55,282 bases of DNA from a virus (Duplodnaviria; Caudoviricetes). A program made the position numbers and the translations under genes. Shown piece after piece: positions 19,798 through 50,324 of the stretch. The notes beneath the pieces are model-generated. The model was not told where the DNA came from. It made no database searches and saw only the letters and a program-made list of their open reading frames with translations. Each line of letters starts with the position of its first letter. Position 1 is the stretch's first letter. Location of the stretch: IMG/VR virus record IMGVR_UViG_3300035659_000016, positions 1 to 55,282 of that record, one strand, 5' to 3'.

Positions 19798-19809
19798 CTT
19801 CTATGCTCC

Positions 19810-21315: not shown

Positions 21316-21365
21316 TTTCCTTACCTCCTGTTGTTGTGGTACTGTGAGAGCACACACAACAAAAC

Positions 21366-22088
21366 CTAATTTTCGACGCCTGGGAGTCGGGGTTGGTTGG
21401 TCCCCTGAACCCACAAGGCGTCGCCGTTATAAACTGTGGGATCGGCCACCTTGGCCAACTCGAACGCTTCGTGACGCTCCACACAGGTACCACAGCGACC
21501 GCAGTGTGTCGAGCCACCTTTGTAACAACTCCACGTCAACTCGAAGGGAACATGCAAAGCGGCCCCCGCCTTTACAATAGCCGCCTTGGTGTCACGAATG
21601 AACGGAGTGCTGATGCGCACGGGTGGGTCAACCATACCCAGGTTGCCGAGTTGGAACGCATGCTCTAGGGTGTCCATGAAGTCAGGACGGCAGTCGGGAT
21701 AGATGGGATGGTCCCCTGCATGCACACCCACGAAGACGACCTCCGCCTTCTCAGCCACCGCCACGGCATACGCGATACTGAGAAAGACCGCATTGCGGTT
21801 CGGCACCACTGTGATGCGCATCGACGCATCGCGATAGTCGCCTTCAGGTACATCTATCGTGCGGTCTGTCAAGGCCGAACCGCCTAATAGAGCCGCGAGC
21901 GACTTGAGATCGACGACGTTGAGGGGGCACTCCAAGGCATTGCAAATCTGCCCTGCAGAACGAAGTTCACGATGGTGCCGCTGCCCGTAGTTGAAGGCCA
22001 GGGCGTGTACTCTATACCCCGCTTTCAAGGCGTAGTAGAGTGTCACGGTGGAGTCGATGCCTCCACTAGTGAGTACGATCGCTTTCAT
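21366..22088 (-). CDS. queC: 7-cyano-7-deazaguanine (preQ0) synthase
   Basis: SGGIDS PP-loop, NYGQRH, VPNRN, YPDCR, TWSCY...CGRCGTC. Confidence 0.97.
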   Translation of the reverse strand: MKAIVLTSGGIDSTVTLYYALKAGYRVHALAFNYGQRHHRELRSAGQICNALECPLNVVDLKSLAALLGGSALTDRTIDVPEGDYRDASMRITVVPNRNAVFLSIAYAVAVAEKAEVVFVGVHAGDHPIYPDCRPDFMDTLEHAFQLGNLGMVDPPVRISTPFIRDTKAAIVKAGAALHVPFELTWSCYKGGSTHCGRCGTCVERHEAFELAKVADPTVYNGDALWVQGTNQPRLPGVEN

Positions 22089-24600
22089 TTTTACCTCCAG
22101 TGCCTGCGTTGGAGATGACAATTTCAGTGGCGAGTGGCAGCTTGTCGGGCAAGTCTAAATCCGCTCGGCGCGCTTCTTCCAACGAGACTTTATACATCCA
22201 ATAAGTCGCCCCTTTGAGAGTGACCGCTGTGCGACACAGTATGTACTGCCCCACCTGGGGCTTCCTCGGATCGATCAGGCGCTCTTGTAACTGTGCCTTG
22301 AGTGCGGGTAGTTCCAACGCGTCGCGACCGGCACGACGTCGCTCCGTGGCCCACCACGTGTAGGCCGAAGAGATCTGAAAACCCATCGCCGCTTCCCTTG
22401 GAAACCACGCCGCCACATAACGAGGATGGTCGTTGGTAGCCATGTCGTTCACCAACGCTTCGATGAACTCGTCAGCCAACAATGAAGTGCGCCCCGACTT
22501 TTCGACGACATTGAACAATGTTTCCTCAAAGAGACTACGCACGTACTCTGGCGTCAGAAGGGGCTGCCGCAGCCCCAAGCTTTCCAACCACAGTGCTAGG
22601 TGAATCAGCCCATGCACCCCAATAGCCAAGTTCTGTCGCACACGGTCCGGCATGGGCTGGTTCGCGAAAGCGTCTTGAATCGATCGGAGGGCCTCGGTCC
22701 ACTTCAAGGGCGCCTGAAGCGTATACTGGATGTAGGCCGCCGCGATGCGGTTGATCCCCAGGGTATCGATTTGGCGATGTGCTTTCTCGGCTGGTGTACC
22801 TAGGTCGATGGTCTCGGGCATTAGCCGTACTTGCAAGACGCGCTCCTTGAGCGCCGGGTCTACTAACGCATCTTCGCCGTCGACGATCAACGGTGAAGTC
22901 AAGGGATACTCTTGTGTCGTCTGATCCGCTCTACCTCTAGCATCCCGGCCACTATCGTACGCTAGTAACAAATAACGTAGCAGGCGTGGGGTGCTATGCA
23001 ACCGAAACTCACTCAGTGAAACCGGCAAAGCGTTCGTCGCACCTAGCAAGGTCAGTAGGACGAAATTGGTTGTGCCACTGTCGTACGAACGCCCATCGAC
23101 AACCCCCAGTAGGGGCAGCAGCACACGAGTGATCGTAACTGTCTTACCACTACCTCTCGTGCCGAAGATGTTGAGAAGCGGGTAGCGCACATTCAGGTCC
23201 CACAACAGCGGCTTGAAGGGAGCTGAGAAAAGCCAGCCCAGTACGGGGCCCATCACCTCTGGACGATTCAGTTGCCATAGAAGTGGGAACAGTTGTCGTG
23301 CTAAGGCTTTCACTACGGTGGGCTCCACGGTGGCGTAGTGTGTGTGTGGTGCTTCGCGTTGCGCACTCATGTAGTGCACAGGACGTGCGTCGCCTTCGGT
23401 AATCTCCGCGGCTGAAAGGACCTGATCGGTACCCACCCAGTAGTTCTCGAAGCGCCCCAACACACGAGTGGCCTGGATCTTGGGCAACCCTTTGGCTAGG
23501 AGTTGTTGCATTAGGTATGGCAGCAGTGCCCGCAACTGGCGGTCACTGCCTAACCACTGTGCTGCGGCCTGTGGCATCTGGCGGTTGAGATCGCTCACGG
23601 AATTGAAAGCAATCTTGGTAAGCACCTGGCTGGGCCACACAAACCCACTCGCATGCAAAACCCCTAGGAGCGCGTCCACTGCATGTGCGTCGGTGTGCTC
23701 GATAAGGGCCTGCGGCTCAAACGTGAAAGTACTAACTGGTACCTTGTCACCCCGTAGCAAAACAAAGTATTGGTCGTTCTCCATAACGAAGGGCCCTGCT
23801 ACGCACGCGGCTCCGCCCCCAGCAGTCTTGGCTGCTCGTGCTGTCGCGCGCTTCAGTGTATGCTCCCAGTAGTTGCCCCCTTCCCGCATCTTGTTACCAC
23901 ACGGTGCAACAGCGAAGACCTGGGTAGTAGTGTCTACAGAAACCCCAGCGCTCAGCATTGCAGTCACAACGGCCCAATCGCGTTCCGAGCGACTGCGGTG
24001 CCCCGAGTTACCCGATGTGTTCACGGCGTGATGGATCTCCACCGGAATCGCCAGGGCAGCTTGCAAATCGCCCCACGTATAGCGGTTGTCTTCGGCGGTC
24101 ACCAGGTTGCACGGTTTGGGATGTTGGGGGTCTTTGAAGTTTGTCGTCCCTGGCACTCTTAGGATACGTGCAACATCGTGAACCTTTGTGTCGCCACCTA
24201 GCAAGGTTGCGGCTTGCGTCATCCAACCTTCTGCCGCCTCGAAGTCATCGGGGCCCAAGGCCTCTGTCAACAACCAATAGTAGTGATACCCGTTACCGGA
24301 GTCCACGACCAGCGATGGCGGCAACGCAAAAGGGGGAGGCTCACGTGTAGCGTCGACATCTATCCACAGAGACAGCAGACGGCTAACGTTGCGTTTGCTC
24401 CCACCCCCCTTGGCACCCCTTGGTGCCACACCGACGTAGAGGTGCCCTGTGCCCAGAGTAGCTGTCGCCGCTGTCGCTTCGGAAGGGGAATGCACGAAGT
24501 GTGCCTTCATCGTCTTCGAGGCCGGATTGGGTTGATGTCTGAGCTCAATCCTCTCCTTCGCCTTGATCCCTGCAAATAGTAACGAAAAAAAGTCTTCCAC
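22066..24600 (-). CDS. Primase-helicase: RepB-like AEP primase plus DUF927-like P-loop domain
   Basis: WIDVD, DSGNGYHYYW, ARILRVPGT.N.K, SRSERD; Walker A GTRGSGKT. Confidence 0.85.
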   Translation of the reverse strand: MEDFFSLLFAGIKAKERIELRHQPNPASKTMKAHFVHSPSEATAATATLGTGHLYVGVAPRGAKGGGSKRNVSRLLSLWIDVDATREPPPFALPPSLVVDSGNGYHYYWLLTEALGPDDFEAAEGWMTQAATLLGGDTKVHDVARILRVPGTTNFKDPQHPKPCNLVTAEDNRYTWGDLQAALAIPVEIHHAVNTSGNSGHRSRSERDWAVVTAMLSAGVSVDTTTQVFAVAPCGNKMREGGNYWEHTLKRATARAAKTAGGGAACVAGPFVMENDQYFVLLRGDKVPVSTFTFEPQALIEHTDAHAVDALLGVLHASGFVWPSQVLTKIAFNSVSDLNRQMPQAAAQWLGSDRQLRALLPYLMQQLLAKGLPKIQATRVLGRFENYWVGTDQVLSAAEITEGDARPVHYMSAQREAPHTHYATVEPTVVKALARQLFPLLWQLNRPEVMGPVLGWLFSAPFKPLLWDLNVRYPLLNIFGTRGSGKTVTITRVLLPLLGVVDGRSYDSGTTNFVLLTLLGATNALPVSLSEFRLHSTPRLLRYLLLAYDSGRDARGRADQTTQEYPLTSPLIVDGEDALVDPALKERVLQVRLMPETIDLGTPAEKAHRQIDTLGINRIAAAYIQYTLQAPLKWTEALRSIQDAFANQPMPDRVRQNLAIGVHGLIHLALWLESLGLRQPLLTPEYVRSLFEETLFNVVEKSGRTSLLADEFIEALVNDMATNDHPRYVAAWFPREAAMGFQISSAYTWWATERRRAGRDALELPALKAQLQERLIDPRKPQVGQYILCRTAVTLKGATYWMYKVSLEEARRADLDLPDKLPLATEIVISNAGTGGKNESDRTH

Positions 24601-28819: not shown

Positions 28820-28980
28820 GGTTCGTTCTCCTTGTCGTCGTCGAGCTGGGCCTGTAGTTCATCAAAGGCCATTTGGTCGGCTAGACACTCGGGACAAAGG
28901 GTCTCGTCATCCTGTGGCGTGAAGAAGACACGGCACTCCGAGCAGCGGATCATTTTCTTGGTCTTCTTTGGCTTGGCCAT
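28816..28980 (-). CDS. 54-aa zinc-ribbon protein (CSEC...CPEC)
   Basis: MAKPKKTKKMIRCSECRVFFTPQDDETLCPECLADQMAF...; overlaps both neighbours; not in the ORF track. Confidence 0.7.
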   Translation of the reverse strand: MAKPKKTKKMIRCSECRVFFTPQDDETLCPECLADQMAFDELQAQLDDDKENEP

Positions 28981-29411
28981 CATTTACCCCTCCGCTTCTG
29001 GAACTCCGCGAGTCCCTCAGCCGTAAAGAGCCACACGCCAGTCGCATTCGAAGACCCTGGGACGTTCCCGCTCATCGCGAGTTTGCGTAGGTACTGGCGA
29101 TGCAGCCCGACTAGGGTCGCCGCGGCCCGTATCCCATAGGTTCCGTCTGCCGCTGGGCCGTCTGAGGGAGGGCGCAGAGGTGAGGCTGTGGCTCTGTGGC
29201 GCATGCTGGAGGGCGGTAGCCAATGCTTCGGTCCTCGATTCTTTTCAGGGATGGGTTGGTCGCTGAGACTCTCCTCGGGGATCCACGCCCCAATTTTCTT
29301 GAGGGGGAAGAAGACATCATAGAGTTTCACATCGGCTTCCAATCGGTGACCCCGAACCTTGCCCTCGCCGTAGTGGCGATGGTACACCATCTGCCGTAGA
29401 TTGAATGACAT
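28980..29411 (-). CDS. SH3/KOW-like N-domain plus excisionase-type HTH_17 protein
   Basis: VYHRHYGEGKV; YGIRAAATLVGLHRQYLRKLAMSG...G.WLF. Confidence 0.7.
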   Translation of the reverse strand: MSFNLRQMVYHRHYGEGKVRGHRLEADVKLYDVFFPLKKIGAWIPEESLSDQPIPEKNRGPKHWLPPSSMRHRATASPLRPPSDGPAADGTYGIRAAATLVGLHRQYLRKLAMSGNVPGSSNATGVWLFTAEGLAEFQKRRGK

Positions 29412-29493: not shown

Positions 29494-29784
<291 letters not shown>

Positions 29785-30909: not shown

Positions 30910-32319
30910 CTAACCTCCTTCCACTGTAGCAAGGGCCCAGGCAAACTTTGCCCGGAGCGCTTTGCTGTAAATCTTCAACCAAGACCCTGTTGGGTCCCAG
31001 TCGACGAACACACGGGGGTCAATGTAGGACTTCAGCGACGTGCCGAGATTGTAGTCTTGTGCGGCGACTAGGAACTCTTTCTCGCGGCTGGGTTGCTTCT
31101 TGGCGAGCCGCTCTTCCCAGTTCTTGGGCAGTGTGCGACGATGATTCAACCGCTGCGCTGCGGCTAAGTTGGCGTACTTCGCTGTTAGCACAGTGTCGCC
31201 TTTCAGGTCCCGCCCTTGAGTAGGTCCGCTACATCCCTTCAAGAACTCGCGGGCCGCTGCCGTGCCGTGCATCGTGCGGAATGTCTTGGCTGTCAACCCC
31301 CCCATCTGTGCTTTCAGGAAGCGGTTGATGTCCTGAGCACTCACGTGTGGGAACAATGGCTCGTCGCCCTGAGCCGAGTCGAGTCGCGTGACGATCGCGT
31401 TGAAGATCGCTCGCGGTGGAATGAACGTCACTTCGAGCCTCACACTGTCCTTGCCCAAGAAGTCCAACGACACCTCTTGGCTGTCGAGTTCGTAACTCAC
31501 GTGCTCGCATCGCAATGTGCAAACGCCTACTGTGTCGGCTGCGTCCTCGCCCTTCTCGTCGCCGACGCGCAGGGCGAGATTGTCAAGCAAGTACATCGCG
31601 GTGCGAAACTCCGGAGAGTATAGGCCCGACGCATACAACTCGCGAATACGCTCGATGTCCCTTGTGAGTGCGAGTGCCTTGTCGTACTTGGCTTTGTCCT
31701 TGCTTTGGCGTGGCGCTGCGGTCTCGGCGACCCACAGGTACTTGCGACCGTGCTGACCGAGTGGTTTGGGCCAACTAGCAATCCAGTACTGGTCACGCAT
31801 CTCGACGATGTGACGCCACTTCCCCAGTGGGATCGGTGCCTTGGCGTCCAAGTTGAGTGTGACGTCTTCTGCCGTGATGCGATCTTTCCAACGACCACGC
31901 AACGGGTGGTCGCCACGACCGATGAAGATGCCCGGCGGCTCGATGCCGTACTGACAGGGTGTCTTGACCCCATCAATTGTAGCAAAACCAAAGTTGGCCT
32001 TGGTTGCCTGCTGTCGCATCTTGCGGAGCTTGCGTTCTTCGGGCGACAGCTCCTTCAACGTTGGCGGCAACTTAATGACTAGGTCGAACGGCCAGTCACG
32101 TAGCTCACGGTCGCTCGCCTTCGACATCATGTTGAGGTCGTGTACGAAGTTGGTCTTGAAGACCTTGTCCTTGCGGCGTTCTTCGGGCTGGCGCCACCAA
32201 GCGACGAGCATCTCTTCCGCTAGGGGCGACAACCACGACTGGCCCGTAGCCTTGAACGGCTCTGGAAAGACGACGCCGTTGTGTCGGAATGTCTTCCATG
32301 GCTGTGTCATTTGTCTCAC
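30910..32319 (-). CDS. top1: Type IB DNA topoisomerase, large eukaryote/Thaumarchaeota-like form
   Basis: WKTFRHNGVVFP, EPPGIFIGRGDHP, KYDKA..L, ALRVGDEK...ADTVG.CTLR.EH, LDFLGKDS, GLTAKTFRT, NHRR, NLGTSLKSYIDPR, KFAWA. Confidence 0.95.
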   Translation of the reverse strand: MRQMTQPWKTFRHNGVVFPEPFKATGQSWLSPLAEEMLVAWWRQPEERRKDKVFKTNFVHDLNMMSKASDRELRDWPFDLVIKLPPTLKELSPEERKLRKMRQQATKANFGFATIDGVKTPCQYGIEPPGIFIGRGDHPLRGRWKDRITAEDVTLNLDAKAPIPLGKWRHIVEMRDQYWIASWPKPLGQHGRKYLWVAETAAPRQSKDKAKYDKALALTRDIERIRELYASGLYSPEFRTAMYLLDNLALRVGDEKGEDAADTVGVCTLRCEHVSYELDSQEVSLDFLGKDSVRLEVTFIPPRAIFNAIVTRLDSAQGDEPLFPHVSAQDINRFLKAQMGGLTAKTFRTMHGTAAAREFLKGCSGPTQGRDLKGDTVLTAKYANLAAAQRLNHRRTLPKNWEERLAKKQPSREKEFLVAAQDYNLGTSLKSYIDPRVFVDWDPTGSWLKIYSKALRAKFAWALATVEGG

Positions 32320-32820: not shown

Positions 32821-33082
32821 TGTGTGCCTCCTCTAGTTTGACAACGGCGAAGCGGCTGGCAGCCTTGGTCAGGATGGCGCCGCTGCCATTTGGGTCGAAC
32901 AGAGTGAAGACCAGTTCCGTAGAGCCGTCGTCGAATTGATACAACCAGGTAGCTAGGACTCGGAAGTTTGCGTCGCCCCTCAGCCGGGTCATGTCGTAGA
33001 TGCCGGAGCCAGCGCTCTGATCCGCGACCACGACCGTTAGGCCTCGGAAGTGCGTCTGGACGTTACCGACGTGCTTTGTCAT
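32813..33082 (-). CDS. Small hypothetical early protein
   Basis: AAGGAGGT RBS. Confidence 0.6.
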   Translation of the reverse strand: MTKHVGNVQTHFRGLTVVVADQSAGSGIYDMTRLRGDANFRVLATWLYQFDDGSTELVFTLFDPNGSGAILTKAASRFAVVKLEEAHNA

Positions 33083-33160
33083 AGTGAACCTCCTTTCTTA
33101 GGTTGGCACTCAGGGCCCTAGGTGAGATGAAGAGAGCCTAGGACCCCGTGGTCCGTTATC

Positions 33161-33349
33161 CTAAGGCGTGGCGTCTACCACGTGGACCTCTAGGATGTCG
33201 TAGTCGGCAATGAGGGCGAGCGGCTCTAGGACGGCTACTAGGTTCTCGCGGGCTATGCGTCCCGCCAGTAGGTCCTCGGCACCTTCTGCCACGACAATCG
33301 GGTCGTTGGCGAACCATCTCTTGCCCATTTCCACGGTCGCGTCGTCCAT
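33161..33349 (-). CDS. Small hypothetical early protein (start uncertain)
   Basis: ORF downstream of promoter 33429-33458. Confidence 0.4.
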   Translation of the reverse strand: MDDATVEMGKRWFANDPIVVAEGAEDLLAGRIARENLVAVLEPLALIADYDILEVHVVDATP

Positions 33350-33428
33350 GGGCTGATTGACACGATGTCCAGATGGAATGTAACTCGCTTGGCGTTCATG
33401 CTGTGTCCTCCTTTCATTTTACAAACTA

Positions 33429-33458
33429 ATTATACTACAAGACAGGTGTCTTTTTCAC
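33429..33458 (-). promoter_or_regulatory. Class-1 promoter GTGAAA-N18-TATAAT with GACACCTGTC box in the spacer
   Basis: One of four related copies. Confidence 0.7.
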
Positions 33459-33515
33459 TGGGGACAACCTTAAAGTTTTGATTCAAATTAGACTGTCTGT
33501 GTGCTAAAGAGACCA

Positions 33516-33545
33516 ATAGCCCGTCTCGACTTGAGGCGGGCTATC
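33516..33545 (-). terminator. Hairpin after HTH gene
   Basis: atagcccgtctc...gaggcgggctat on the + strand. Confidence 0.5.
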
Positions 33546-33554
33546 GGCTGTCGG

Positions 33555-33962
33555 TCACGCTGCGGGCTCGGGTAGGAGCTCGACGAAACCGCTGGCGTCG
33601 CTTGGCTCGGTCGTGACGACCACGGCCCCCTGGACGAATCCTTTGTCTTCCAGATCGGGCGTAGCAACCGGCACCTTGGGCTGGCGCGGCTTGCGGGTCT
33701 TGCGCTGCTTCGGTGCGTTGCCGGGCGAGTCGATGTTCGCCGTGACAGCGCCGTAGGTCGGTGCCTGCGCCTTGCGTGCGTCGCGGGTCGTCTTGTACTC
33801 CGTGAGGGACGCGACCGAAATCATTGTCCGGTTGTCCTCTTTCACGGTGTCCAAGCGGCGCTCCCAGAGCAACTTGCGGACTCTGTGGACGGAGACGCCC
33901 AGGAAGTCTTGTGCTTCCTTAACCGACATGTAGCTCTTCGCGGCTGACAGTTTCTTCGACAT
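33555..33962 (-). CDS. HTH_17 DNA-binding protein, paralog A (normal composition)
   Basis: YMSVKEAQDFLGVSVHRVRKLLWERRLD; AAGGAGG RBS. Confidence 0.85.
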   Translation of the reverse strand: MSKKLSAAKSYMSVKEAQDFLGVSVHRVRKLLWERRLDTVKEDNRTMISVASLTEYKTTRDARKAQAPTYGAVTANIDSPGNAPKQRKTRKPRQPKVPVATPDLEDKGFVQGAVVVTTEPSDASGFVELLPEPAA

Positions 33963-34128
33963 TTTGGCCTCCTTAGCCTATTCGCTCCTCACGCCCAAGC
34001 GACGGGCCTGGGTGCGAGTGAGACTCTTTGTTAAGCTGCGGCTGACAGTCACCCTGCCTTGCCTTACTGGCACTGGCACTGGCAGGGTCTGGTTCGTTAT
34101 CCGCTATAGGATGCTATGTTGCTATGCC

Positions 34129-34371
34129 CTAGGCTTCCACGAGCGTAATGGTAATGCCGTCTGGGACTTCGTAGACTCTGGACACCGGGTTGTCATTCAG
34201 GTCTGTGACGTAACGAATCGAGGTGGCGGGGTAGCCCATAGCCTCGGCCACCAACCGCGCCGCGCCTCGCGGTGTCGCACTACGAAAGCGAAAGGTGTGT
34301 GGCTTGCTTGGGTCGGTTGGTCGTGGCCACTGTTCCTCTACGACCGCTGTGTAGACTTCTGTCTTTGGCAT
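34129..34371 (-). CDS. Small hypothetical early protein
   Basis: AAGGAGGTG RBS. Confidence 0.6.
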   Translation of the reverse strand: MPKTEVYTAVVEEQWPRPTDPSKPHTFRFRSATPRGAARLVAEAMGYPATSIRYVTDLNDNPVSRVYEVPDGITITLVEA

Positions 34372-34443
34372 GTGTCTCACCTCCTTTCTTTGTTCTGTCT
34401 GGGCTGACAGTCCAGGCGTCGGCACTCGGCGCCTGCTGGTTCG

Positions 34444-34671
34444 TTATCCCAGTCTTGCAATGGCAATGTCTCGCGCCTCCACAACGTCGTGTCGCTTGCT
34501 GTAGGCGACCAAGAAAATGCCGAGATACTTGTAGGTGGCCGCCATGAAGTGCTTGGCCATCCACGCGGCGACGTCGTCGGCTGTCTTGCAGTCTGCGTAC
34601 TCTTTAGCTGCAACGGCTAGGCCGGTCGCGATCTTGTCTTTGGCTTCCTCTGACAGTGGCACTTGTCTCAC
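34444..34671 (-). CDS. Small helical hypothetical early protein
   Basis: AAGGAGGTG RBS; downstream of promoter 34733. Confidence 0.6.
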   Translation of the reverse strand: MRQVPLSEEAKDKIATGLAVAAKEYADCKTADDVAAWMAKHFMAATYKYLGIFLVAYSKRHDVVEARDIAIARLG

Positions 34672-34732
34672 CTCCTTTCATGCCCAGATTGTTGTGTGTC
34701 TCTATAGGCAATGGTTGTCTTTCTTCAATTTT

Positions 34733-34762
34733 ATTATACTACAGGACAGGTGTCGTTTGCAC
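34733..34762 (-). promoter_or_regulatory. Class-1 promoter GTGCAA-N18-TATAAT
   Basis: Spacer acgacacctgtcctgtag. Confidence 0.75.
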
Positions 34763-34846
34763 TACGACACACCTTAAATTTTTTGTTCAGTTGTCGGCTG
34801 GCAGTCAGGGCGCCGTTGGCATGGCGCCCCCTGGTTCGTGATCCGA

Positions 34847-35077
34847 CTACACTTTGATGTCTGCTGCGGCCGCTTTGCTGTCTGTCTCGGCGCAATCTAC
34901 GATGTCCTGATGTGACATCGGTGTCCTTTCTGGCACCTTGATGTCGTAGGTCGCGTCTTCTAGACACGCTTGTGCATCCGTGTCGTCTTCAAAAATGGTC
35001 TTGCAGAGCCATTCGTGAAGCGTTTCTGGCGTGACGTCGCCGTCTACCACGAACTTGACGTTGTAGGCTCGAGCCAT
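34847..35077 (-). CDS. Small acidic early protein
   Basis: AAGGAG RBS; Asp/Glu-rich. Confidence 0.6.
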   Translation of the reverse strand: MARAYNVKFVVDGDVTPETLHEWLCKTIFEDDTDAQACLEDATYDIKVPERTPMSHQDIVDCAETDSKAAAADIKV

Positions 35078-35111
35078 GTTTCTCCTTTCGTTGTTCGTTG
35101 TTCGCTGGTCG

Positions 35112-35393
35112 CTAGGTTTTTGTGTCTTGCCACTTTCGAATCTTGATCATTGTCCAATTCGGTCGTAGGAGCGGGTCGCCTAGTGAAACTAAGCTGGCGT
35201 GTCCGGTCGGCGGTTGTGTGTCCCATGCAATGTCGCCTGTCGGTGGCCACGGTTTGCTAATTGCGATACCGTTGGCTAGAAACGCTTGCCTGGCTTCTGG
35301 CGAATCTTCAATGTAGACACCCGCTTGTTTCGCCCACAACCACTTTCGTGTCTGGCGAACTGCCTTGTTCAGACTGGTGTTTGTTTGTGACAC
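35112..35393 (-). CDS. Small hypothetical early protein
   Basis: AAGGAGG RBS; first gene after promoter 35432. Confidence 0.6.
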   Translation of the reverse strand: MSQTNTSLNKAVRQTRKWLWAKQAGVYIEDSPEARQAFLANGIAISKPWPPTGDIAWDTQPPTGHASLVSLGDPLLRPNWTMIKIRKWQDTKT

Positions 35394-35431
35394 TGTGTCC
35401 TCCTTAGAAGGATTGTTAAGGTTCTAATTAT

Positions 35432-35461
35432 ATTATATTACAGGACACCGGTCGTTTGCAA
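35432..35461 (-). promoter_or_regulatory. Class-1 promoter TTGCAA-N18-TATAAT
   Basis: Spacer acgaccggtgtcctgtaa. Confidence 0.75.
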
Positions 35462-35504
35462 GGGGTCGCAGTGTGCCAATTTTGTTGTCGAGTGGCGCGC
35501 TTGG

Positions 35505-35872
35505 CGATTCTAAAATTAGGTTTGGTTTGGCTAGCCTAGCAAACGGTCAATTCGTTTTTGGATTCGGAAATTCGAAAATTCTGTGCTCGACATTGAACCA
35601 TGTGGGCTACCCTCTGCTGACACCTTGTCATGGGGGAGCACAAAAAGTGATCCAAAGGTGACCCAAAAAACCTAATTTTCGAATCGCAAAACGCAAAAAC
35701 GAATCCTCCGTCCACTCGCGAAATCTCGTTGTTTTTCAAGCTGGAATCGCTGTGGGTCCATGGAAGAATTAGAAAATTAGAAAAAATGTTTTGGATAGAT
35801 TACTTATTTAGTTCTTTCTAGCAAAGATGATTTATCGCTCTCTATTCGATTCTGAAGCTAATTTTCGAATCG
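35505..35872. repeat. CTAATTTTCGAATCG boxes, left cluster (35672, 35858; inverted 1-mismatch copy at 35505)
   Basis: Direct reading; same box at 37860 and 37913. Confidence 0.85.
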
Positions 35873-36381
35873 CGTCGATTTTTCGTGTTCAGGAGCACTG
35901 TTTTTGTGTTCAGGGGCGATACCCTAGATGGTCTTCGTCGCATCCGAACAAGCCTCGTTGTCACAGAATCTAGTACTACCACGACACGAAGGCTGACCGG
36001 ACACCCAGCGGTGCGTCGCATGTAGCTGCAGGGTCGTGGCCGGAGGAAACCCCACGGCGACTCCCCCTGTGCCTCCACCGCGGGGCTGGGCCAGACTGGA
36101 CAGGCTGATGTAGCAGCATGTCGGGTCACGGAAGGACGTAGCGGCTAGGGCGTGTCCAGATTCGACGTAGCGGCATGTCCGGACGTAACAACGTGGCACG
36201 TAGCGACCCTGGCGTGTCCAGATGGGACACAGGACGTACTGGGCAGGGCCAGACACGCCAGGGGAGATTGCGGGGGCGAGGCGGGACACGACTACTCATA
36301 GGCAGGTGGGGCCTCGGACTCTTTCTTCAGAGGAGACGCCAGCGTGTCGTGGCGCGCTGGCGCTCCTGTCTCCTGTCGCGA

Positions 36382-36708
36382 CTAGGCTACTTTGTCGTAG
36401 TCTTCGATGAACCAGTCTCCGATGTCGACATTGTGTCTCTTCGCGAACTTTTGAATCGCTCCGAGATACGCTTCGATGTTTGTCGGCGCCTGCACCTTGT
36501 CGTACATAGCGTGCAGTTCGACGAAGACTTCGTTCCGCTTCTTTGTCGGATCATCGGTGTTATGTGTCGGCAGTGTGATGTGTATTGCTTCGGTGAATTG
36601 TCCGCTCGAGAACGACCCGTAGGCGTTGCCTAACTTGAATGCGTCGGCTGTCGATAGGTGTTTCATGTCTCGCTTAACCTCCTTGTAGACTTGTTGTGTT
36701 GTCTTCAA
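36382..36708 (-). CDS. Hypothetical early protein (start probably ATG ~36666)
   Basis: AAGGAGGT RBS before MKHL; follows promoter 36713. Confidence 0.6.
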   Translation of the reverse strand: MKTTQQVYKEVKRDMKHLSTADAFKLGNAYGSFSSGQFTEAIHITLPTHNTDDPTKKRNEVFVELHAMYDKVQAPTNIEAYLGAIQKFAKRHNVDIGDWFIEDYDKVA

Positions 36709-36712
36709 TTAT

Positions 36713-36742
36713 ATTATATTACAGAACACCTGTCGTTTGCAA
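36713..36742 (-). promoter_or_regulatory. Class-1 promoter TTGCAA-N18-TATAAT
   Basis: Spacer acgacaggtgttctgtaa. Confidence 0.75.
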
Positions 36743-37012
36743 GGGGTCCTTCCCCGCCAATTTTTGGCACGTAGCGACCGTGTCGTAGCGGGACACGACG
36801 TAGTGGCACGTAGCGACTGGGTCGGGGTCGAACACGACGCAGCGGCATGTCGGCGCAGCGGCATGTCGAGACAGGACACATTGCGTCGGGGGCAGGGCCA
36901 GATTCGATGTAGCGACTGTGGCACGTAGCGACCGTGTCTTATCCAGACAGGACAAGGGGACCCCCCAATACGAACAGTACTTGTTGTTCAATACGAACAG
37001 TACTTGTTAGTC

Positions 37013-37045
37013 AAAAAAAAACTTGACAACGTTGTTGTCAAGTTT
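37013..37045 (-). terminator. Intrinsic terminator closing the island transcript
   Basis: 12-bp stem aaacttgacaac/gttgtcaagttt ending in a run of 9 T on the - strand. Confidence 0.85.
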
Positions 37046-37056
37046 CTTTTAGTGTG

Positions 37057-37134
37057 TTAGAAGATTCTCACACAACTGAAGAATACAGTAAACACACTAA
37101 ACACGAACAAGATCGCTAACACCAACTCTTTCAT
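37057..37134 (-). CDS. 25-aa hydrophobic peptide MKELVLAILFVFSVFTVFFSCVRIF
   Basis: Purine-rich leader, TM-like, lies between two hairpins; not in the ORF track. Confidence 0.6.
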   Translation of the reverse strand: MKELVLAILFVFSVFTVFFSCVRIF

Positions 37135-37198
37135 TTTCTTCACTCTTTCTTGTAAAGTAGTTGATGTCTTTCGACATCAACTACTTCACAAACGTTTG

Positions 37199-37453
37199 TC
37201 AACTTTCTTGAACTTCTAGTTGTGAAGATTCGTTCACAACTTCCTCAAGTTTGTTGCTTGTGTGGTAGGTAGGAGACTTGACCATTCGGTTGTCTCTTAC
37301 CTTCTTGTACTTTGTGAGAGATTCGATCGTAATCATTGTACGACCATCGACCTTTTGTGAGTCAAGTTTCCTCTCCCACAAAAGTTTACGAACTCGATGA
37401 ACCGAAACTCCCAAAAACACCATACTCTCTTTCACATTCAAAAACTTCTTCAT
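37199..37453 (-). CDS. HTH_17 DNA-binding protein, paralog B (alanine-free)
   Basis: FLNVKESMVFLGVSVHRVRKLLWERKLD; AAGGAG RBS; no Ala in 84 aa. Confidence 0.85.
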   Translation of the reverse strand: MKKFLNVKESMVFLGVSVHRVRKLLWERKLDSQKVDGRTMITIESLTKYKKVRDNRMVKSPTYHTSNKLEEVVNESSQLEVQES

Positions 37454-37556
37454 CTCGAACTCCTTTTTGAACTTTTTGATGAAACGAGTTTGAATGAGAC
37501 CAAGTTGGTCTCATTCATTCAATTTCATATTTGTTAAAGTTCAATTCTACAAACTC

Positions 37557-37585
37557 ATCATACAACAAGTTCAATAAAAAGTCAA
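37557..37585 (-). promoter_or_regulatory. Near-consensus sigma70 promoter TTGACT-N17-TATGAT
   Basis: Direct reading; drives paralog B. Confidence 0.85.
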
Positions 37586-37848
37586 CACATATTCACATAT
37601 TCGTTGATGTCTATATGTTTGTTATATTTCAAACTAACACTAATTGTTTGTGTTGGTGAATACTAATTGTTAGTCGGTACTAACATAATGAGACTAGGTT
37701 AGTCTCGTTTAACGTTTGATGTTAGTACATACTAATTGTTAGTATGTACTAACAATTTTGAATAGTCCACCCTACCCCTCAAAAAAGGCACGATCAGGTT
37801 CCACGGACGCTACGCTACTTTTCCACCCGATAGGGTCCCCTCGATACG

Positions 37849-37927
37849 CGAATCCGAACCTAATTTTCGAATCGAAATCAACCTGCTGGTTGCTGGCCAC
37901 ACGAATCCGAACCTAATTTTCGAATCG
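37849..37927. repeat. Two perfect 26-bp direct repeats CGAATCCGAACCTAATTTTCGAATCG, 53-bp period
   Basis: 37849-37874 and 37902-37927, just upstream of the terS promoter. Confidence 0.9.
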
Positions 37928-37936
37928 CCCCGACTC

Positions 37937-37966
37937 TTGCAAGGGCTCCCCGAAGGGTTGTATAAT
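37937..37966 (+). promoter_or_regulatory. Late-operon promoter TTGCAA-N18-TATAAT
   Basis: ttgcaagggctccccgaagggttgtataat upstream of terS. Confidence 0.7.
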
Positions 37967-38003
37967 GAGGTAGACTTAGCGGATGTAATCAAGGACACAC
38001 ACA

Positions 38004-38735
38004 ATGCGATCCAAACCAATAACCACAGCGGGTCGCCCACGCGACCAAGACCTAGAGGTACTCGACCCCGAACTCGAAGACGACGCTGTGCGAGAGGATG
38101 TCGCCGCGATGCCCGTAGCAGTCAATGGCCCGGCGCCCGCGACGACGTTGGCGGCAGTATTTCCCGTCGAGACCCTAACCGGTCGACATCAGCAAGGCAA
38201 GCCCCGCTCCGGAGCCAAGAACTTTCGCCATACCAAGTTCCAGCGTAAGATGGGGCGTGCCGAGCGACTTAAGAACGTCGCCGCCTGGTTGCACGCTGGG
38301 CTGACCCAAACCGAGATGGCAGAGCGTGCGGGTGTTAGTCAACCCATGATTAGCCTAGACCTAATACTCCTAGGCAAAAAGTTTCACGAACAGGCCGGAC
38401 AAAGCACGAGTGAATGGGTGGGCCGCGAGCTAGCCTACGCACTCGAACGCCGCGCCGAACACCTCGGGGTAGCACAAAAGGGTGCCGACCTCAACACAAT
38501 GAAGCACTACACTCTGGTCTTGAAGTGGACCGAGCGGGTCGCCATGTTGCTGGGCTTGGACGCGCCGAGCAAAGTCGACAACTGGACCGATAAGGACTGG
38601 AAGAAGTTCCTAGAAGAGAATGGACTAGAGGAAGCCGATGCTATCCGAGAGGCAGAGCTCATTATCAACTCAGCAAAAAGCGGGCCTGCTTTACTTGCAG
38701 CAGGTCCTGGCTCCGAAGCTACGCGAGTCGCTTGA
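38004..38735 (+). CDS. terS: Terminase small subunit (HTH)
   Basis: GLTQTEMAERAGVSQPMISLDL HTH; ERVAMLLGLDAP; precedes terL. Confidence 0.8.
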   Translation: MRSKPITTAGRPRDQDLEVLDPELEDDAVREDVAAMPVAVNGPAPATTLAAVFPVETLTGRHQQGKPRSGAKNFRHTKFQRKMGRAERLKNVAAWLHAGLTQTEMAERAGVSQPMISLDLILLGKKFHEQAGQSTSEWVGRELAYALERRAEHLGVAQKGADLNTMKHYTLVLKWTERVAMLLGLDAPSKVDNWTDKDWKKFLEENGLEEADAIREAELIINSAKSGPALLAAGPGSEATRVA

Positions 38736-40185
38736 CGGTCATAGTCGTAGCAAGTACGAGTTCCGCGGAGTCGCCTTCACCCTCCAGACCGCGCAGGACC
38801 GCGAAATCGTTCTTACAGGGGCCACGCGCACTGGCAAGTCTCTAGCCGCCCTTTACAAATTGCATCGCTGTGCACTCAAGTATCCAGGATTCAGAGGACT
38901 GATTATCCGTAAGACGCGCGAGTCGCTGAACGAGTCCGGCCTCCTGACGTTCGAGCGAGACGTACTTGGTAGTCGGTCCTCTCTCCTGAGCGGAGCGCGG
39001 CGCGCCAGTCGCCATTCGTACATCTACCCCAACGGGGCGGAGATTGTTGTTGGTGGGCTGGTAGCCAATGGTCGTGACCAGATAGCCAAGATCATGTCTA
39101 CGGAATACGACATGATCTTCGCACAAGAGTGCACCGAGCTAGCCGAGACCGAGTGGCAACAGTTGCTGACACGGCTGTCCAACTACAGGATGCCCTACCA
39201 GCAGATCATTGGTGACTGCAACCCGAACGTACCCACGCACTGGGTGCGACGGCGCTCCTTGAGCAAGCGCCTCCTGTTGTGGGAGATGTTCTTCCACGAC
39301 AACCCGCGCTGGTGGGTCATTGACGAGTTGGACCTCAGTGGTGAGGGCGGGCACTGGACAACTGAGGGCATGGCACTGATGGCCAACCTCAAGACCCTTA
39401 CTGGCCTATCACGTCAGCGACTAGTATTGGCACAGTGGGTGCAAGCAGAGGGCGCCATCTTCAACGAGGTCTGGGACGAGTCACGCGGTAGCATTAGCGA
39501 AGGCGCCCTCTTCGAAAAGGACGCCGGGGAGATCTATTGGGCCGCAGATGACGGGTACTCAGCGGGTTCGGCAGCCCTAACCGGTGGCCGCGACGCGGAG
39601 ACAGGATACTACGCCGCCGATGCGCATCCGCGCGTCTTCCTAGTCTGCCAGCTCAAGCCAGACGGTCACATCGACGTCCTGTGCGAAAGCTATGCGTGTC
39701 TGAAACTCACCGACGACCACATCGCCGAAGTCCTAGCGCTGCCGAAGACGTTGGAGGATGTGCAGACCCGGCTTCAGTCCAGCCCGCTACATGGTGACAA
39801 ATGGCTCGAAGCCAATCCCAACAAGGTGACGCAGGTGCGTGAGGTGCGGGACATGCACCCGGATTGGTTCTACGACGAGCCGACCATTGTCTCCTTTGGG
39901 CCCGGCAGCGCAGAGTTCAGGGGACGCCTTTACGCCGCGCAGCTGGTACCGCACCAATGTACCGAACGCGTGGACACATCACTACAAGAACTTCGGAGTT
40001 GGCTGTCCGCGGATGCCAACACCTTCCGGCGGATTAGAGTAAATCCGTCGTGTGTGAACTTACGAATGCAAATGGTAGAGTACTCTACCGACGAGGCCAC
40101 CCAAAAGCCACGCAAGGCGTTTGACGACGGGCCAGACGCCCTTCGTGGTCTGGTTTGGGTACTCAGAGGAATGGTTAATGCCTAA
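38638..40185 (+). CDS. terL: Terminase large subunit
   Basis: Walker A GATRTGKS, IIRKT..SL, Walker B MIFAQE, DCNP, DNP, nuclease WAADDG and DDGPDALR. Confidence 0.9.
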   Translation: MLSERQSSLSTQQKAGLLYLQQVLAPKLRESLDGHSRSKYEFRGVAFTLQTAQDREIVLTGATRTGKSLAALYKLHRCALKYPGFRGLIIRKTRESLNESGLLTFERDVLGSRSSLLSGARRASRHSYIYPNGAEIVVGGLVANGRDQIAKIMSTEYDMIFAQECTELAETEWQQLLTRLSNYRMPYQQIIGDCNPNVPTHWVRRRSLSKRLLLWEMFFHDNPRWWVIDELDLSGEGGHWTTEGMALMANLKTLTGLSRQRLVLAQWVQAEGAIFNEVWDESRGSISEGALFEKDAGEIYWAADDGYSAGSAALTGGRDAETGYYAADAHPRVFLVCQLKPDGHIDVLCESYACLKLTDDHIAEVLALPKTLEDVQTRLQSSPLHGDKWLEANPNKVTQVREVRDMHPDWFYDEPTIVSFGPGSAEFRGRLYAAQLVPHQCTERVDTSLQELRSWLSADANTFRRIRVNPSCVNLRMQMVEYSTDEATQKPRKAFDDGPDALRGLVWVLRGMVNA

Positions 40186-45886: not shown

Positions 45887-45962
45887 AAGGTAAAAGTAAA
45901 GGAGATCAGAACCAAAATGGGGGTTGCTCGACAAAGCAACCCCCATTAACCCAAAGGAGCAA

Positions 45963-47174
45963 ATGCAAGCCAAGCCGTGGGTCACAATAATCACCCCCGT
46001 AGCCGAGCCGCACGTGGTGCTACTGTCACAGGCCGTATCTTCAGTCGAGGCCCAGACGGTTGGGGGGTGGCAAGTTTTGATCGTTAACGACACAGGTCGC
46101 AAGCTAGACCCTATGCGACCCACAGACAGCCGGATCCAGATAGTGTCTACAAAGGGAGGCACTGGATCCGCACACTCCCGCAATGTGGGTGTGGACAAGG
46201 CGACTACGCCGTTTGTGGCCTTTTTGGACGCCGACGACCTCCTAGTACACACGGCACTTGAAGTTATGGTGCGGGGGTTCGCTTCGCCCCCAGACATCTC
46301 GTACACCTACGGAGACCATTTCGAGCTGACTGCGTCCAAAGAGGTCAAGTACTTCACGACATCATCGTATGATCGCGTAGAGATACTCAAGCACAGTCTT
46401 CATGCGGTCACTACACTCATTCCGAAATCTGTCGTTCTGGCCGCAGGGGGTTTTGACGAGCAATACAAAGGGTGGGAGGACTGGGAGTTCTATCTACGCC
46501 TAGCCCTCAAGGGGTACTGTGGTCTGAAGGTTCCGTCACCCACAATCGTCTACCGCCTGGCGAGCTCGCTCAACCGTGAACGCCACAACGCCGACGGGCC
46601 CGCACAACGAATGACTATTATCCGCAAGTACGCGGATTGGTTCGAAGGGAGGAAACAACCTATGGGATGCTGCCCCCAAGATCCAGAAGCGCTTAGGGTG
46701 GCGCAGGAAATGATTGACGCCCTGCCGAAGGCGAAGGGTGGCAAAGTACTACTGGAGTACATCGGGTCCGCAAAGGGCACAATACCCTTCAGAGGTCCCA
46801 GCGGTTCCACGTATGTTGGGGCACGCGATGGCATCAACGCTTTTGTTCAAGCGGACCCCAAGGACGTAGCACACCTAATCGACACACAGCAATGGCGCCA
46901 GTCAGTACAGGCGGCAACACCCACTGTCGAGCCCAAGCCCGCCGAAGTCGCCCTACCTGCCACCTTCAGTCGGCCCGAAGCCGCAGACGCCCCTCGCGCA
47001 GAGTTTACAGCGCAGCCCGGGGCTACAGTAGTCCCGCCGGGTGACGGAGAGATGCCACAGATGACATCACCGTTCTTGCCCGACGCTGTCGTAGTCACCC
47101 CGACGCCCAAGACCCGCACGCCTCGCAAACCCAAGGTGACGACGACAGTTGGAGGGCCCCCCGATGCTGTATGA
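45963..47174 (+). CDS. GT2 glycosyltransferase fused to a C-terminal small domain and Pro-rich tail
   Basis: VTIITP, LIVND, SRNVG, FLDADD, GGFDE...WEDWEFYLRL. Confidence 0.9.
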   Translation: MQAKPWVTIITPVAEPHVVLLSQAVSSVEAQTVGGWQVLIVNDTGRKLDPMRPTDSRIQIVSTKGGTGSAHSRNVGVDKATTPFVAFLDADDLLVHTALEVMVRGFASPPDISYTYGDHFELTASKEVKYFTTSSYDRVEILKHSLHAVTTLIPKSVVLAAGGFDEQYKGWEDWEFYLRLALKGYCGLKVPSPTIVYRLASSLNRERHNADGPAQRMTIIRKYADWFEGRKQPMGCCPQDPEALRVAQEMIDALPKAKGGKVLLEYIGSAKGTIPFRGPSGSTYVGARDGINAFVQADPKDVAHLIDTQQWRQSVQAATPTVEPKPAEVALPATFSRPEAADAPRAEFTAQPGATVVPPGDGEMPQMTSPFLPDAVVVTPTPKTRTPRKPKVTTTVGGPPDAV

Positions 47175-47940
47175 TTGCTTTCTTTTTAGCGGTCTAGGTG
47201 CCGAGCAAGTACTACTAGACATTCGCTTGCGGGAGCTGCACGACGTAGTCGAGCACTTTGTGCTAGTGGAGGCGACCAAGACCTTCACAGGCCAATCCAA
47301 GCCAATTTACATGGGCGATCACCACAAAGCCGTACGCAATTTGCGCTACGTGGTGGTCAACGATATGCCTGAAACCCAAAACCCGTGGGAGCGCGAAGCC
47401 TTCCAACGCAATGCGATCCTGCGGGGACTAACGGACGCGAAAGACGATGACTTGGCGCTGATGTCTGACGTGGACGAGATTCCGAGGGCCGAGACCCTAC
47501 CTCGCATTCTAGCACATGGAACCCTACTCGCCTTTGAGCAGGAGTTCTTCTACTACAATTTCAACACTCGAGCCAGAGGAAAGTGGTTAGGAACGCGGAT
47601 GTGTTCTGTGGGCGACTTGCGGCGCTGGTCACCCCAAGAAGCCCGCCGCCGCTTTACTGACAAGGTGGCTCGCGGAGGTTGGCACCTCACATGGTTCGGT
47701 AGTGACGAGGACACCGCCACGAAAATTAGGTCTTTTTCACACCAGGAATACAACAAGCCCGAGTTTACCGACCTGGAGCAGATTAGTGCACGCCGCCAGA
47801 AGGGGGCCGACCTGTTCGATCGACCCGTCATGCAGTTCGAACGAGTCAACGGCAACCTATCGCACCTACCACAGTGTGTTCAGTTACATCCTGATTGGTA
47901 CCAGCAGTTCTTTGCCACCCAAGCGGAAGGGGTGCCGTGA
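47164..47940 (+). CDS. GT17 (MGAT3-like beta-1,4-GlcNAc transferase) family protein
   Basis: YDCFLF, LDIRLREL..VV.HFVLVEA..TFTG..KP, WEREAFQRN, SDVDEIP, GGWHLTW, KIRSFSHQE. Confidence 0.9.
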   Translation: MLYDCFLFSGLGAEQVLLDIRLRELHDVVEHFVLVEATKTFTGQSKPIYMGDHHKAVRNLRYVVVNDMPETQNPWEREAFQRNAILRGLTDAKDDDLALMSDVDEIPRAETLPRILAHGTLLAFEQEFFYYNFNTRARGKWLGTRMCSVGDLRRWSPQEARRRFTDKVARGGWHLTWFGSDEDTATKIRSFSHQEYNKPEFTDLEQISARRQKGADLFDRPVMQFERVNGNLSHLPQCVQLHPDWYQQFFATQAEGVP

Positions 47941-48542
47941 AGATCGATCTCAACCCCTATCCAGGAAGGGATAAAGAGCCCCTCAATGCCCACCCGCAGG
48001 ACGGGCTTGAAGAGTACCAAAGAGCCTGGGAGATTGAGACCCTGGAAGACCTTTACATCGCCAAAGCACCCAAGCGGGTGTGTGAGATCGGCATCTTTCA
48101 GGGTGGTACCCTCAAGCGCTGGCTGCAGCATGCCGCTTTCGGGGCCATCGTTGTGGCTGTGGACATCGATCTCGTGCCGTTGCGGAAACACCCTTACAGT
48201 GAATGGGTCAAGCCGTCCACCACCCTAAAAATTATCCAGGGGGGTACCGAGCACGCCTCGACGTTCGACGCCGTGCGCGAGGCCGTAGGTGGACAGCTAG
48301 ACTGGTTGTGGATCGATGGGGATCACACCTACAACATGACGAAGAGTGACTTGGCCCGCTACGGCCCTCTGGTGGTCGAAGGGGGCCTTATCGCCATGCA
48401 CGACATTAACCTACCCGGAATCGCAGCCGTGTGGGACGAGGTACAGAAGGCCGGTTACCTTACCCGCGAGTTGCAGTCGCAGTTCGTAGCTCCTGACGAA
48501 GGGGTGGCAAAGGGTACTGGGATTGGAGTTATCTATGTATAA
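47937..48542 (+). CDS. Class I SAM-dependent methyltransferase (Methyltransf_24-like)
   Basis: EIGIFQGG, AVDI, DWLWIDGDHTY, GGLIAMHD. Confidence 0.9.
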   Translation: MKIDLNPYPGRDKEPLNAHPQDGLEEYQRAWEIETLEDLYIAKAPKRVCEIGIFQGGTLKRWLQHAAFGAIVVAVDIDLVPLRKHPYSEWVKPSTTLKIIQGGTEHASTFDAVREAVGGQLDWLWIDGDHTYNMTKSDLARYGPLVVEGGLIAMHDINLPGIAAVWDEVQKAGYLTRELQSQFVAPDEGVAKGTGIGVIYV

Positions 48543-50012: not shown

Positions 50013-50324
50013 ATGGCGACATTTCCAACGAGTCCTGGGGCTGGCGCTGCAATTCCGGCTGTGTTAGCTTCCCCCGACCAAGTGCAAGGAAACCATGCCT
50101 TCCCGGCGTATCTCCTAGTGGGGCCTTGGGATGACGGGCGGCCGGATCAAGGGATGCCACCGACACACGTGTGGCCGATCAACATGTGGGACTTGGTCGA
50201 GTTCGGGGGCAAGTACTCGCTCGTAGGAGAGGTTATGGCTCTGCCCATCCGCCCGTCCTACGCCCCGATAGTGACAGGAGACAAGGCCATAGCGATTCTT
50301 ATCGTGAACCTCGGAGGCAACTAA
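50013..50324 (+). CDS. Hypothetical virion-region protein
   Basis: GAGG RBS, tiles the operon. Confidence 0.55.
   Translation: MATFPTSPGAGAAIPAVLASPDQVQGNHAFPAYLLVGPWDDGRPDQGMPPTHVWPINMWDLVEFGGKYSLVGEVMALPIRPSYAPIVTGDKAIAILIVNLGGN

Follow-up and report, generated by a model that had tools for sequence, protein, structure and literature searches.

An alanine-free winged-helix paralogue in a GpC-poor island of an uncultured caudoviricete genome

Xis and BldC, small DNA-binding proteins of the winged-helix type, multimerise on repeats. Here we describe two proteins of the same group, designated A and B, that are encoded in IMG/VR virus record IMGVR_UViG_3300035659_000016 (Duplodnaviria; Caudoviricetes), the whole of which (55,282 bp, ~57% GC) is referred to below as the window and the virus as the phage. 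B contains no alanine, and its gene lies in an 859-bp island from which the dinucleotide GpC is almost absent. In vertebrate genomes the decay of methyl-CpG erodes CpG, and there too one self-complementary dinucleotide is missing where base composition predicts many. The polarity is, however, the reverse of that seen with vertebrate CpG islands, the phage presenting a small desert in an otherwise normal genome; the dinucleotide is also a different one, and no cytosine (C5) methylase was found in the phage.

Two groups of phages offer further comparisons. For T5, the absence of sites attacked elsewhere from the first-step-transfer DNA has been discussed (bioRxiv 10.1101/866236), and Murciavirus phages escape a Type I system when its motif is missing from the first-injected region (PMC12455610). 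In these cases, as in the window, a short, defined part of the genome associated with very early functions lacks a target that is common elsewhere. There the avoided sequences are defined restriction motifs 4-7 bases long, in DNA known to be the first to enter the cell, whereas here a bare dinucleotide is missing, in a record whose assembled ends join in frame; unlike in T5 and Murciavirus, moreover, avoidance in the island appears to have changed the composition of a protein. The other comparison is with phages that encode the preQ0 pathway, in which guanine in DNA is replaced by 7-deazaguanines (PMC10516641). The DNA guanine transglycosylase DpdA has the motifs GA and GGC in phage CAjan of the Queuovirinae (PMC7544227) and the motif GA in phage iggy (PMC10484667). 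CAjan carries the same biosynthetic genes as the phage (FolE, QueD, QueE and QueC) in a very similar replication module, consisting of PolA, a gene in the dpdA slot, FolE, QueD/E/C, a DJ-1/FtrA-like protein, a helicase, a Cas4-like nuclease, DUF669 and a Sak4-like ATPase. Unlike that of CAjan, the transglycosylase candidate of the phage is missed by curated models; the motifs named above are GA and GGC rather than GpC, and CAjan shows no motif-free island.

An alanine-free paralogue of an HTH_17 protein

The original prediction had described A and B as paralogues that share a motif and align over about 65 aa, and the comparison bears this out: 39 of 62 residues are identical (63%) in an ungapped BLASTP alignment (E 2e-29), and a recognition stretch of 16 residues, FLGVSVHRVRKLLWER, is the same in both proteins, the next residues being R or K and then LD. 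A extends into a C-terminal tail of ~65 aa that B does not have. Every aligned alanine of A had been said to be replaced in B, and the replacements are exactly those listed at the time. A has 15 alanines in 135 aa, five of them within the aligned 62 aa, and these five positions are occupied by S, E, N, V and S in B, which has no alanine in 84 aa. At the nucleotide level the identity of the two genes is 58%, and the third base of the codon is the same at 22 of 62 sites; the split between A and B is, on this comparison, evidently old and the common protein sequence apparently held by purifying selection. Gene A, which is directly preceded by a strong ribosome-binding site (AAGGAGG), has GpC at the expected frequency (43 observed, 40.6 expected). 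The situation of gene B is singular within the window. Among the 264 six-frame open reading frames (ORFs) of at least 60 aa, it has the lowest ratio of observed to expected GpC (0.10, with the next at 0.55) and is one of only two without alanine, the other of which (19794-19979, minus strand) looks, judging from its coordinates, like an out-of-frame overlap on the QueD gene.

Both proteins match Pfam family HTH_17 (PF12728). A exceeds the gathering cut-off (31.4 bits against 27), whereas B remains under it (23.2 bits, E 8.4e-5) and is linked to A by their 63% identity; what sets B apart from the Xis/BldC/RacA group is that it falls short of the Pfam threshold and lacks alanine. When 1.84 billion cluster representatives were searched with a profile, 35 proteins matched, of which only A, B and one metagenome protein of 113 aa (P0003) lay under an E-value of 1e-30, the next match being at 1.2e-9. 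The paralogy had been taken to argue that the island is native rather than a foreign insert, an argument supported by this finding that A, B and P0003 are the sole close members of the family. P0003 is 68% identical to B, carries S, K, N, T and S at the five alanine positions and has one alanine elsewhere in the core. B is the only alanine-free protein among the 35, the other 34 having at least one alanine each. Fifteen of the remaining 32 proteins, picked for their single-domain length, were used as an alignment of distant homologues. Helix 1 has the consensus EAA in this alignment, with alanine at the first of the two alanine positions in 12 of the 15 and also in A; where the consensus reads Ala-Ala, B and P0003 have Ser-Met. 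No relatives of A or B were found in scans of IMG/VR or in GTDB genomes. Searches of GenBank phages with B (tblastn) and with the region (blastn) returned nothing, and neither did a blastn search of 50,697 phage records with the island.

An AlphaFold2 model of B built on 18 sequences has a predicted local distance difference test score (pLDDT) of 86 overall and of at least 89 over residues 1-60. The modelled chain consists of a strand, helix 1, the recognition helix 2, a beta-hairpin wing and helix 3, the same winged-helix fold as in the Xis/BldC/RacA group of small MerR-like HTH_17 proteins (4j2n, BldC 6ama, RacA 5i44). Its best superposition in the PDB is with mycobacteriophage Pukovnik Xis (4j2n; template modelling score 0.80, root-mean-square deviation 1.6 Å), followed by RacA, RdfS and BldC, and the family profile matches the Pukovnik protein by sequence too (8.4e-9). 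B is modelled as a Xis/BldC/RacA-like winged helix with a disordered acidic tail. A role of A and B as excisionases (recombination directionality factors) was considered and rejected. When all six frames of the record were searched with PF00589 and PF00239, neither a tyrosine nor a serine integrase came up, while control genomes gave matches; unlike Xis, then, A and B occur in a phage record, probably a complete one, that has no integrase of either type, and they are therefore read as putative regulators or architectural DNA-binding proteins. Two more HTH_17 proteins are encoded on the minus strand of the left arm, in DNA of normal composition, at 28980-29411 (E 0.0019) and 29494-29784 (E 1.7e-9), which brings the genome total to four genes of this fold.

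The GpC-poor island and the cassette of gene B

The island contains two GpC dinucleotides, at 37115 and 37256, where its base composition predicts 26.9 (Poisson P 8e-10), and the lowest count reached in 20,000 shuffles of its sequence was 11. The region is thus all but free of a target that abounds in the genome at large, with 4373 occurrences in 55,282 bp, of which 4371 lie outside the island. Ranked by length, the top three GpC-free gaps (532, 187 and 141 bp) all fall in the island, where they follow one another directly; no other gap in the genome exceeds 114 bp. The depletion is found in every part of the island, whether coding or not: the non-coding DNA upstream of B has no GpC (7.9 expected), gene B itself has one (9.8 expected), and the stretch downstream of B, which comprises non-coding DNA and a mini-ORF, has one (9.5 expected), with P < 1e-3 in each case. 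Within gene B it extends to NGC codons and to codon junctions that join a final G to an initial C, two places where the original prediction had suggested that its reading could be checked. A single AGC codon is present and GGC, CGC and TGC are absent; junctions of this type number 0 against 4.3 expected (codon-order permutation, P 0.0037). CpG, on the other hand, is normal in the island (24 observed), GG/CC, AT and TA are moderately low, and AC (1.51-fold) and GT (1.56-fold) are the most enriched dinucleotides. An AT-rich stretch of the same genome at 35400-35900 has 24 GpC for 21.7 expected, and in all other windows of less than 48% GC the ratio of observed to expected GpC ranges from 0.69 to 1.35; low GC content is therefore not the cause of the depletion. 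A limited search of the literature on GpC depletion in phages found no description of such an island.

The features of the region are collected in Table 1. Read in the direction of transcription, the cassette is made up of operator-like repeats, a promoter, a structured leader, gene B, a hairpin, a hydrophobic ORF of 28 codons and a terminator. The promoter is the only one of four near-consensus promoters in the region to have no GpC in its -35 box. The leader between it and gene B forms a strong hairpin (z -4.9), and the sequence AAGGAG stands 7 nt before the ATG of B. Upstream, the fold of 37625-37770 has a z-score of -6.2 relative to shuffles. A seventh copy of the half-site TGTTAGT is found in the island at 37005-37011, and 7 of the 10 genome-wide matches to this heptamer fall inside the island. 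Short repeat arrays thus adjoin gene B, as expected for proteins that, like Xis and BldC, multimerise on repeats, and the operator-like repeats may be binding sites of B and, given the identical recognition helix, also of A. One of the two surviving GpC lies in the mini-ORF, in an alanine codon. The hairpin with T-runs on both sides is likely a bidirectional terminator that closes the transcription unit of B, as judged from its sequence. A search of Rfam gave matches at chance level only.

Table 1. Coordinates of the features discussed in the text (window numbering; a dot marks features without strand).
Feature	Coordinates	Strand	Remarks
Copy A	33555-33962	-	135-aa HTH_17 winged-helix protein, putative regulator; DNA of normal composition
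Copy B	37199-37453	-	84-aa alanine-free paralogue of A
GpC-poor island	36929-37787	.	859 bp, 36% GC, 2 GpC
Island promoter TTGACT-17-TATGAT	37557-37585	-	near-consensus, from a consensus scan; predicted
Operator-like repeats	37633-37754	.	ACTAATTGTTAGT three times, TGTTAGT half-site six times, long palindromes
Hairpin with 19-bp stem	37150-37191	.	between gene B and the small ORF; inverted repeat, 95% complementary
Candidate mini-ORF	37057-37143	-	28 codons, hydrophobic; downstream of B
Hairpin with T-run on both sides	37014-37050	.	predicted terminator
Promoter TTGCAA-18-TATAAT	36713-36742	-	GpC in -35 box; predicted
Promoter TTGCAA-18-TATAAT	35432-35461	-	GpC in -35 box; predicted
Promoter TTGCAA-18-TATAAT	37937-37966	+	GpC in -35 box; predicted
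preQ0 (7-deazaguanine) genes	18473-22121	-	FolE, QueE, QueD, DJ-1/PfpI-like (amidotransferase-fold) protein, 168-aa unknown, QueC
Candidate divergent DpdA (DNA guanine transglycosylase)	17353-18156	-	267 aa; weak similarity and position

All or part of the stretch is contained in six sediment runs from six studies. A sequencing or assembly artefact was rejected as the origin of the island, which is present in contigs of five further sediment runs from different studies and in one JGI contig. Haplotypes were compared over 33000-39000 in four of the six runs, using contigs of short-read sediment metagenomes. A 27.5-kb contig of run X2 matches 33000-37874 with 22 differences, 19 of which lie within 37098-37328, and is ~86% identical in the right arm. 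Its island still has two GpC; the ORF of B is intact and still free of alanine in spite of five amino-acid and three synonymous codon changes, the mini-ORF is intact with two residue changes, and the hairpin at 37150-37191 keeps its stem and has its loop replaced. Over 37379-38785 the JGI contig L006 shares 86% identity with the record; it has no GpC in its part of the island, against 9.1 expected, and retains the promoter as TTGACT-17-TATAAT. When the substitutions were pooled (20 from X2, being the best-supported differences of a longer list, and 16 from L006), none of the 36 gave rise to a GpC in either haplotype, whereas 3.9 were expected from spectrum-matched random changes (P 0.012), and one adjacent double change avoids a GpC that each of the single changes would create. 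The island part of L006 is 95.6% identical to the record, compared with 82-84% in the flank. The idea that the island is a mobile or extra-conserved element was nevertheless discarded, because this conservation holds only with respect to the divergent right arm: the island is less variable than the right arm and more variable than the near-identical left arm. Recombination breakpoints were located near 37097, 37329 and 37786.

The population is a mosaic at larger scale as well, with two differences in ~4.1 kb of the left arm in X2 and an identity of 82-86% in the right arm from ~37790 onwards; in three runs a 72-bp stretch (38087-38158) is replaced by 78 other letters. Further repeats surround the island. 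A 42-nt promoter cassette (TTGCAA-18-TATAAT and its flanks) is duplicated at 35426-35467 and 36707-36748 with 95% identity, each copy standing before a small leftward gene, and a third copy of TTGCAAGGG at 37937 is predicted to drive the rightward operon. Immediately to the left of the island, GC-rich direct-repeat arrays of CGTAGCGRC occupy 36137-36207 and 36770-36932 (plus strand); all 6 exact and 5 one-mismatch matches of this motif in the genome fall in the two arrays, on a single strand. Contigs of runs X3 and X5 have an extra 170-bp unit in the array region, and X3 a 38-bp replacement. The arrays may be iterons or regulator arrays. The sequence CTAATTTTCGAATCG occurs in four exact and several degenerate copies, in both orientations, at 35505-35872 and 37860-37927, bracketing a 2.4-kb control region (10 matches with at most three mismatches, 0.7 expected), and the assemblies of other samples break at the right-hand copies.

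Possible causes of the GpC depletion

The explanation towards which we lean, though only slightly, is a purge of GpC at the level of the nucleic acid that is maintained by selection and of which the alanine-free paralogue is a consequence. A and B would be old paralogues of a small Xis/BldC-like winged-helix DNA-binding protein; the recognition helix being the same in both, they would probably read the same DNA sites. B would be encoded in a self-contained cassette purged of GpC over its whole 859 bp. GCN codons, which specify alanine, NGC codons, G-to-C codon junctions and non-coding GpC have all been removed, so that the pressure would act on nucleic acid rather than on protein and the lack of alanine in B would be a side effect, including the loss of the alanine that is retained in helix 1 by most of the distant homologues. 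Direct selection on alanine, for instance through depletion of tRNA-Ala, was rejected on the same grounds, as non-coding DNA, NGC codons and junctions are equally purged and the mini-ORF keeps its alanine. The persistence of the GpC-poor state across the population speaks for selection hiding the cassette from an agent that acts on GpC. If the desert is indeed selected, it would be a rare case of a constraint on DNA or RNA overriding a protein sequence to the extent of removing a whole amino acid from a conserved regulator, and local deserts of single dinucleotides could serve in a cheap genome-wide screen for sequences targeted by as yet unknown modification or defence systems of uncultured phages.

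The leading candidate for such an agent is the phage's own system for inserting 7-deazaguanine. The preQ0 biosynthesis genes are present, with FolE (Pfam E-value 1.8e-52), QueD (PTPS, 2.2e-31), QueC (3.2e-67) and a QueE radical SAM protein (2.3e-07), which the NCBIfam QueE models match at E-values of 3e-18 to 2e-11, under their cut-offs. The candidate transglycosylase fills the slot between PolA and FolE that dpdA occupies in CAjan. It matches TIGR00449 (tgt) with E 0.0017, under the cut-off, and CAjan DpdA locally around an FLD-x-GA motif with E 0.012; 21 of its 30 named ESM-Atlas matches are in clusters labelled Pfam DpdA, and the top cluster (score 0.96) has the DpdA family in 17% of its members. 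A word-index search found no homologues of this ORF, and its single-sequence AlphaFold model (pLDDT 41) was not used. Specificity for two to three bases seems normal for the DpdA family, judging from the motifs reported, and a GpC target would be new.

Under this proposal the target would be the G in GpC, and the cassette would be the only part of the genome never to carry the modified base. That the 7-deazaguanine system is the cause of the purge is a tentative suggestion, and on balance a doubtful one. A more specific version, which is unlikely to hold in all its parts, would have GpC as the target of the divergent DpdA, the cassette as a control module blind to modification, A and B sharing one reading head, and modification as a timing signal. 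The TTGACT promoter, the operators and gene B would then work alike whether the DNA is the modified form of the virion or a fresh, still unmodified copy, whereas the three TTGCAA promoters, with the target in their -35 box, would respond to modification; hypermodification of its DNA would in this way set the timing for the phage, through two paralogous regulators. Were GpC the target of DpdA, ~28% of all G would be 7-deazaguanine (from 4373 GpC per strand). For 7-deazaguanine phages the island also offers a testable handle on the target sequences of transglycosylases and on the possible use of modification-free zones for regulation.

The original prediction had selection against GpC rewriting the protein, and a pressure against GpC on the DNA (or RNA), extending to non-coding sequence, is supported by the counts given above. 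Several observations weigh against its maintenance by selection, or against the agent proposed for it. The absence of alanine is by itself borderline, since in the six homologues of low-GC style 23 of 684 residues are alanine (3.4%; 1.4-5.1% per protein), a rate at which none in 84 would be met with a probability of ~0.055. The missing alanine alone is hence suggestive but not compelling evidence. The polymorphism test is modest (P 0.012, on best-supported differences only), and a local mutational bias could mimic selection. The other promoters and all other early genes contain GpC, which is therefore not generally harmful, and this abundance also leaves unsupported the further claim that the phage keeps one copy of the regulator readable before and one after DNA processing. 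As to the agent, the candidate transglycosylase has no Pfam DpdA or TGT match and fails every curated threshold, and the motifs reported in PMC7544227 and PMC10484667 are GA and GGC, none of them GpC as such. No comparable island is present in two other 7-deazaguanine phages, CAjan, whose GA-free gaps reach 81 bp at most, and the Arthrobacter phage Sonali, which has two annotated transglycosylases and no stretch without GpC of more than 84 bp, so that a cassette free of modification is not general among such phages.

The agent could also come from outside, the cassette being hidden from a host or phage nuclease with GC-containing cutting sites, from an endoribonuclease that cuts GC-containing RNA, or from a metabolite that intercalates at GpC, such as actinomycin, on the view that it is the first part to be exposed or expressed, like leading regions without restriction sites. 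The T5 and Murciavirus cases offer precedents for this, and the GpC-free span roughly coincides with the transcription unit of B and its structured upstream region, as would suit an agent acting on RNA. MqsR-type RNases are specific for GCU, but we know of no nuclease specific for a bare dinucleotide, and none tied to the region was found among the ORFs scanned. The ends of the record join in frame, so that it does not mark a leading end, and an agent of this kind would be evaded in 859 bp only while the rest of the genome exposes 4371 GpC. Actinomycin D does intercalate at GpC (PMC3627577), and an actinobacterial host is suggested by the matches of TerL and QueC, but the compound was inactive against the phages tested in E. 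coli. An outside agent thus seems unlikely to us. Quite unlikely is a historical origin of the composition, whereby the cassette of B was imported from a low-GC relative, or long kept there, and inherited both its poverty in alanine and its lack of GpC. Homologues of low-GC style are indeed poor in alanine, the synonymous sites of A and B are saturated, and the region is a recombination mosaic, with the three breakpoints given above and a right arm of 82-86% identity. Against this, the AT-rich stretch at 35400-35900 of the same genome has normal GpC; the closest relative of B in 1.84 billion representatives, P0003 aside, is A in the same genome; the island has no BLAST match among the 50,697 phage records; and new substitutions still avoid GpC. 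To our knowledge of the literature on dinucleotide signatures, moreover, there is no genome with an observed/expected ratio of GpC near 0.08.

Local mutational decay, that is, a GpC-targeted lesion or deamination in an often-melted or highly transcribed AT-rich control region, we consider very unlikely. It would account for the enrichment of AC and GT, the transition products of GpC, and for the island being more polymorphic than the left arm. Mutation pressure alone would, however, be expected to leave conserved alanines in place under purifying selection, whereas gene B (0.10) is as deeply depleted as the non-coding DNA and has lost the conserved alanine of helix 1. The boundaries of the island are sharp, CpG, GG and CC are far less affected, and neither a deaminase nor a C5 methylase was found in the phage. 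A simple conversion of GpC to GpT or ApC, by deamination or by misreading of a modified G, was rejected: where A has GpC, B has GA, AG, GT, AA and other dinucleotides with no excess of GT or AC (GT in 2 of 15 cases and AC in none), although the comparison is saturated.

Genome layout and additional observations

The paralogues and the island lie at and near the point of divergence between a leftward arm (14767-37453), which carries replication and early functions, and a rightward arm from 38004 on, with the terminase and structural functions. At either end the record has an open ORF (54268-55282 and 1-1880), and the two join in frame as one ORF of 964 aa; the record, labelled 'linear, 83% complete', is therefore probably a complete circular or permuted assembly, circularly closed. 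TerL is 30-40% identical to terminases of Streptomyces and Thermobifida phages, and for QueC the identity to the protein of Arthrobacter phage Sonali is 51%, so that the host is likely actinobacterial. A scan of IMG/VR found no relatives of TerL, and a tRNA search no tRNA genes.

In CAjan (NC_028776) the longest GpC-free gap, of 241 bp (50193-50434), lies in a 630-bp non-coding gap between gp65 and gp66. In the phage, the family A DNA polymerase encoded beside the 7-deazaguanine genes in the left arm (14767-17160, minus strand) has an N-terminal domain of the uracil-DNA-glycosylase superfamily (5.6e-22). A 469-aa ORF at 30910-32319 (minus strand) has all three Pfam domains of eukaryotic-type DNA topoisomerase I, namely the N-terminal DNA-binding fragment (1.2e-32), the catalytic core (1.1e-48) and the C-terminal domain (2.3e-11); a nuclear-type topoisomerase IB seems unusual in a phage. 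Within the structural arm, GT2 and GT17 glycosyltransferases and a Methyltransf_24/CmcI-like methyltransferase are encoded at 45924-48542 (plus strand) and may serve virion glycosylation, which is described for some actinophages.

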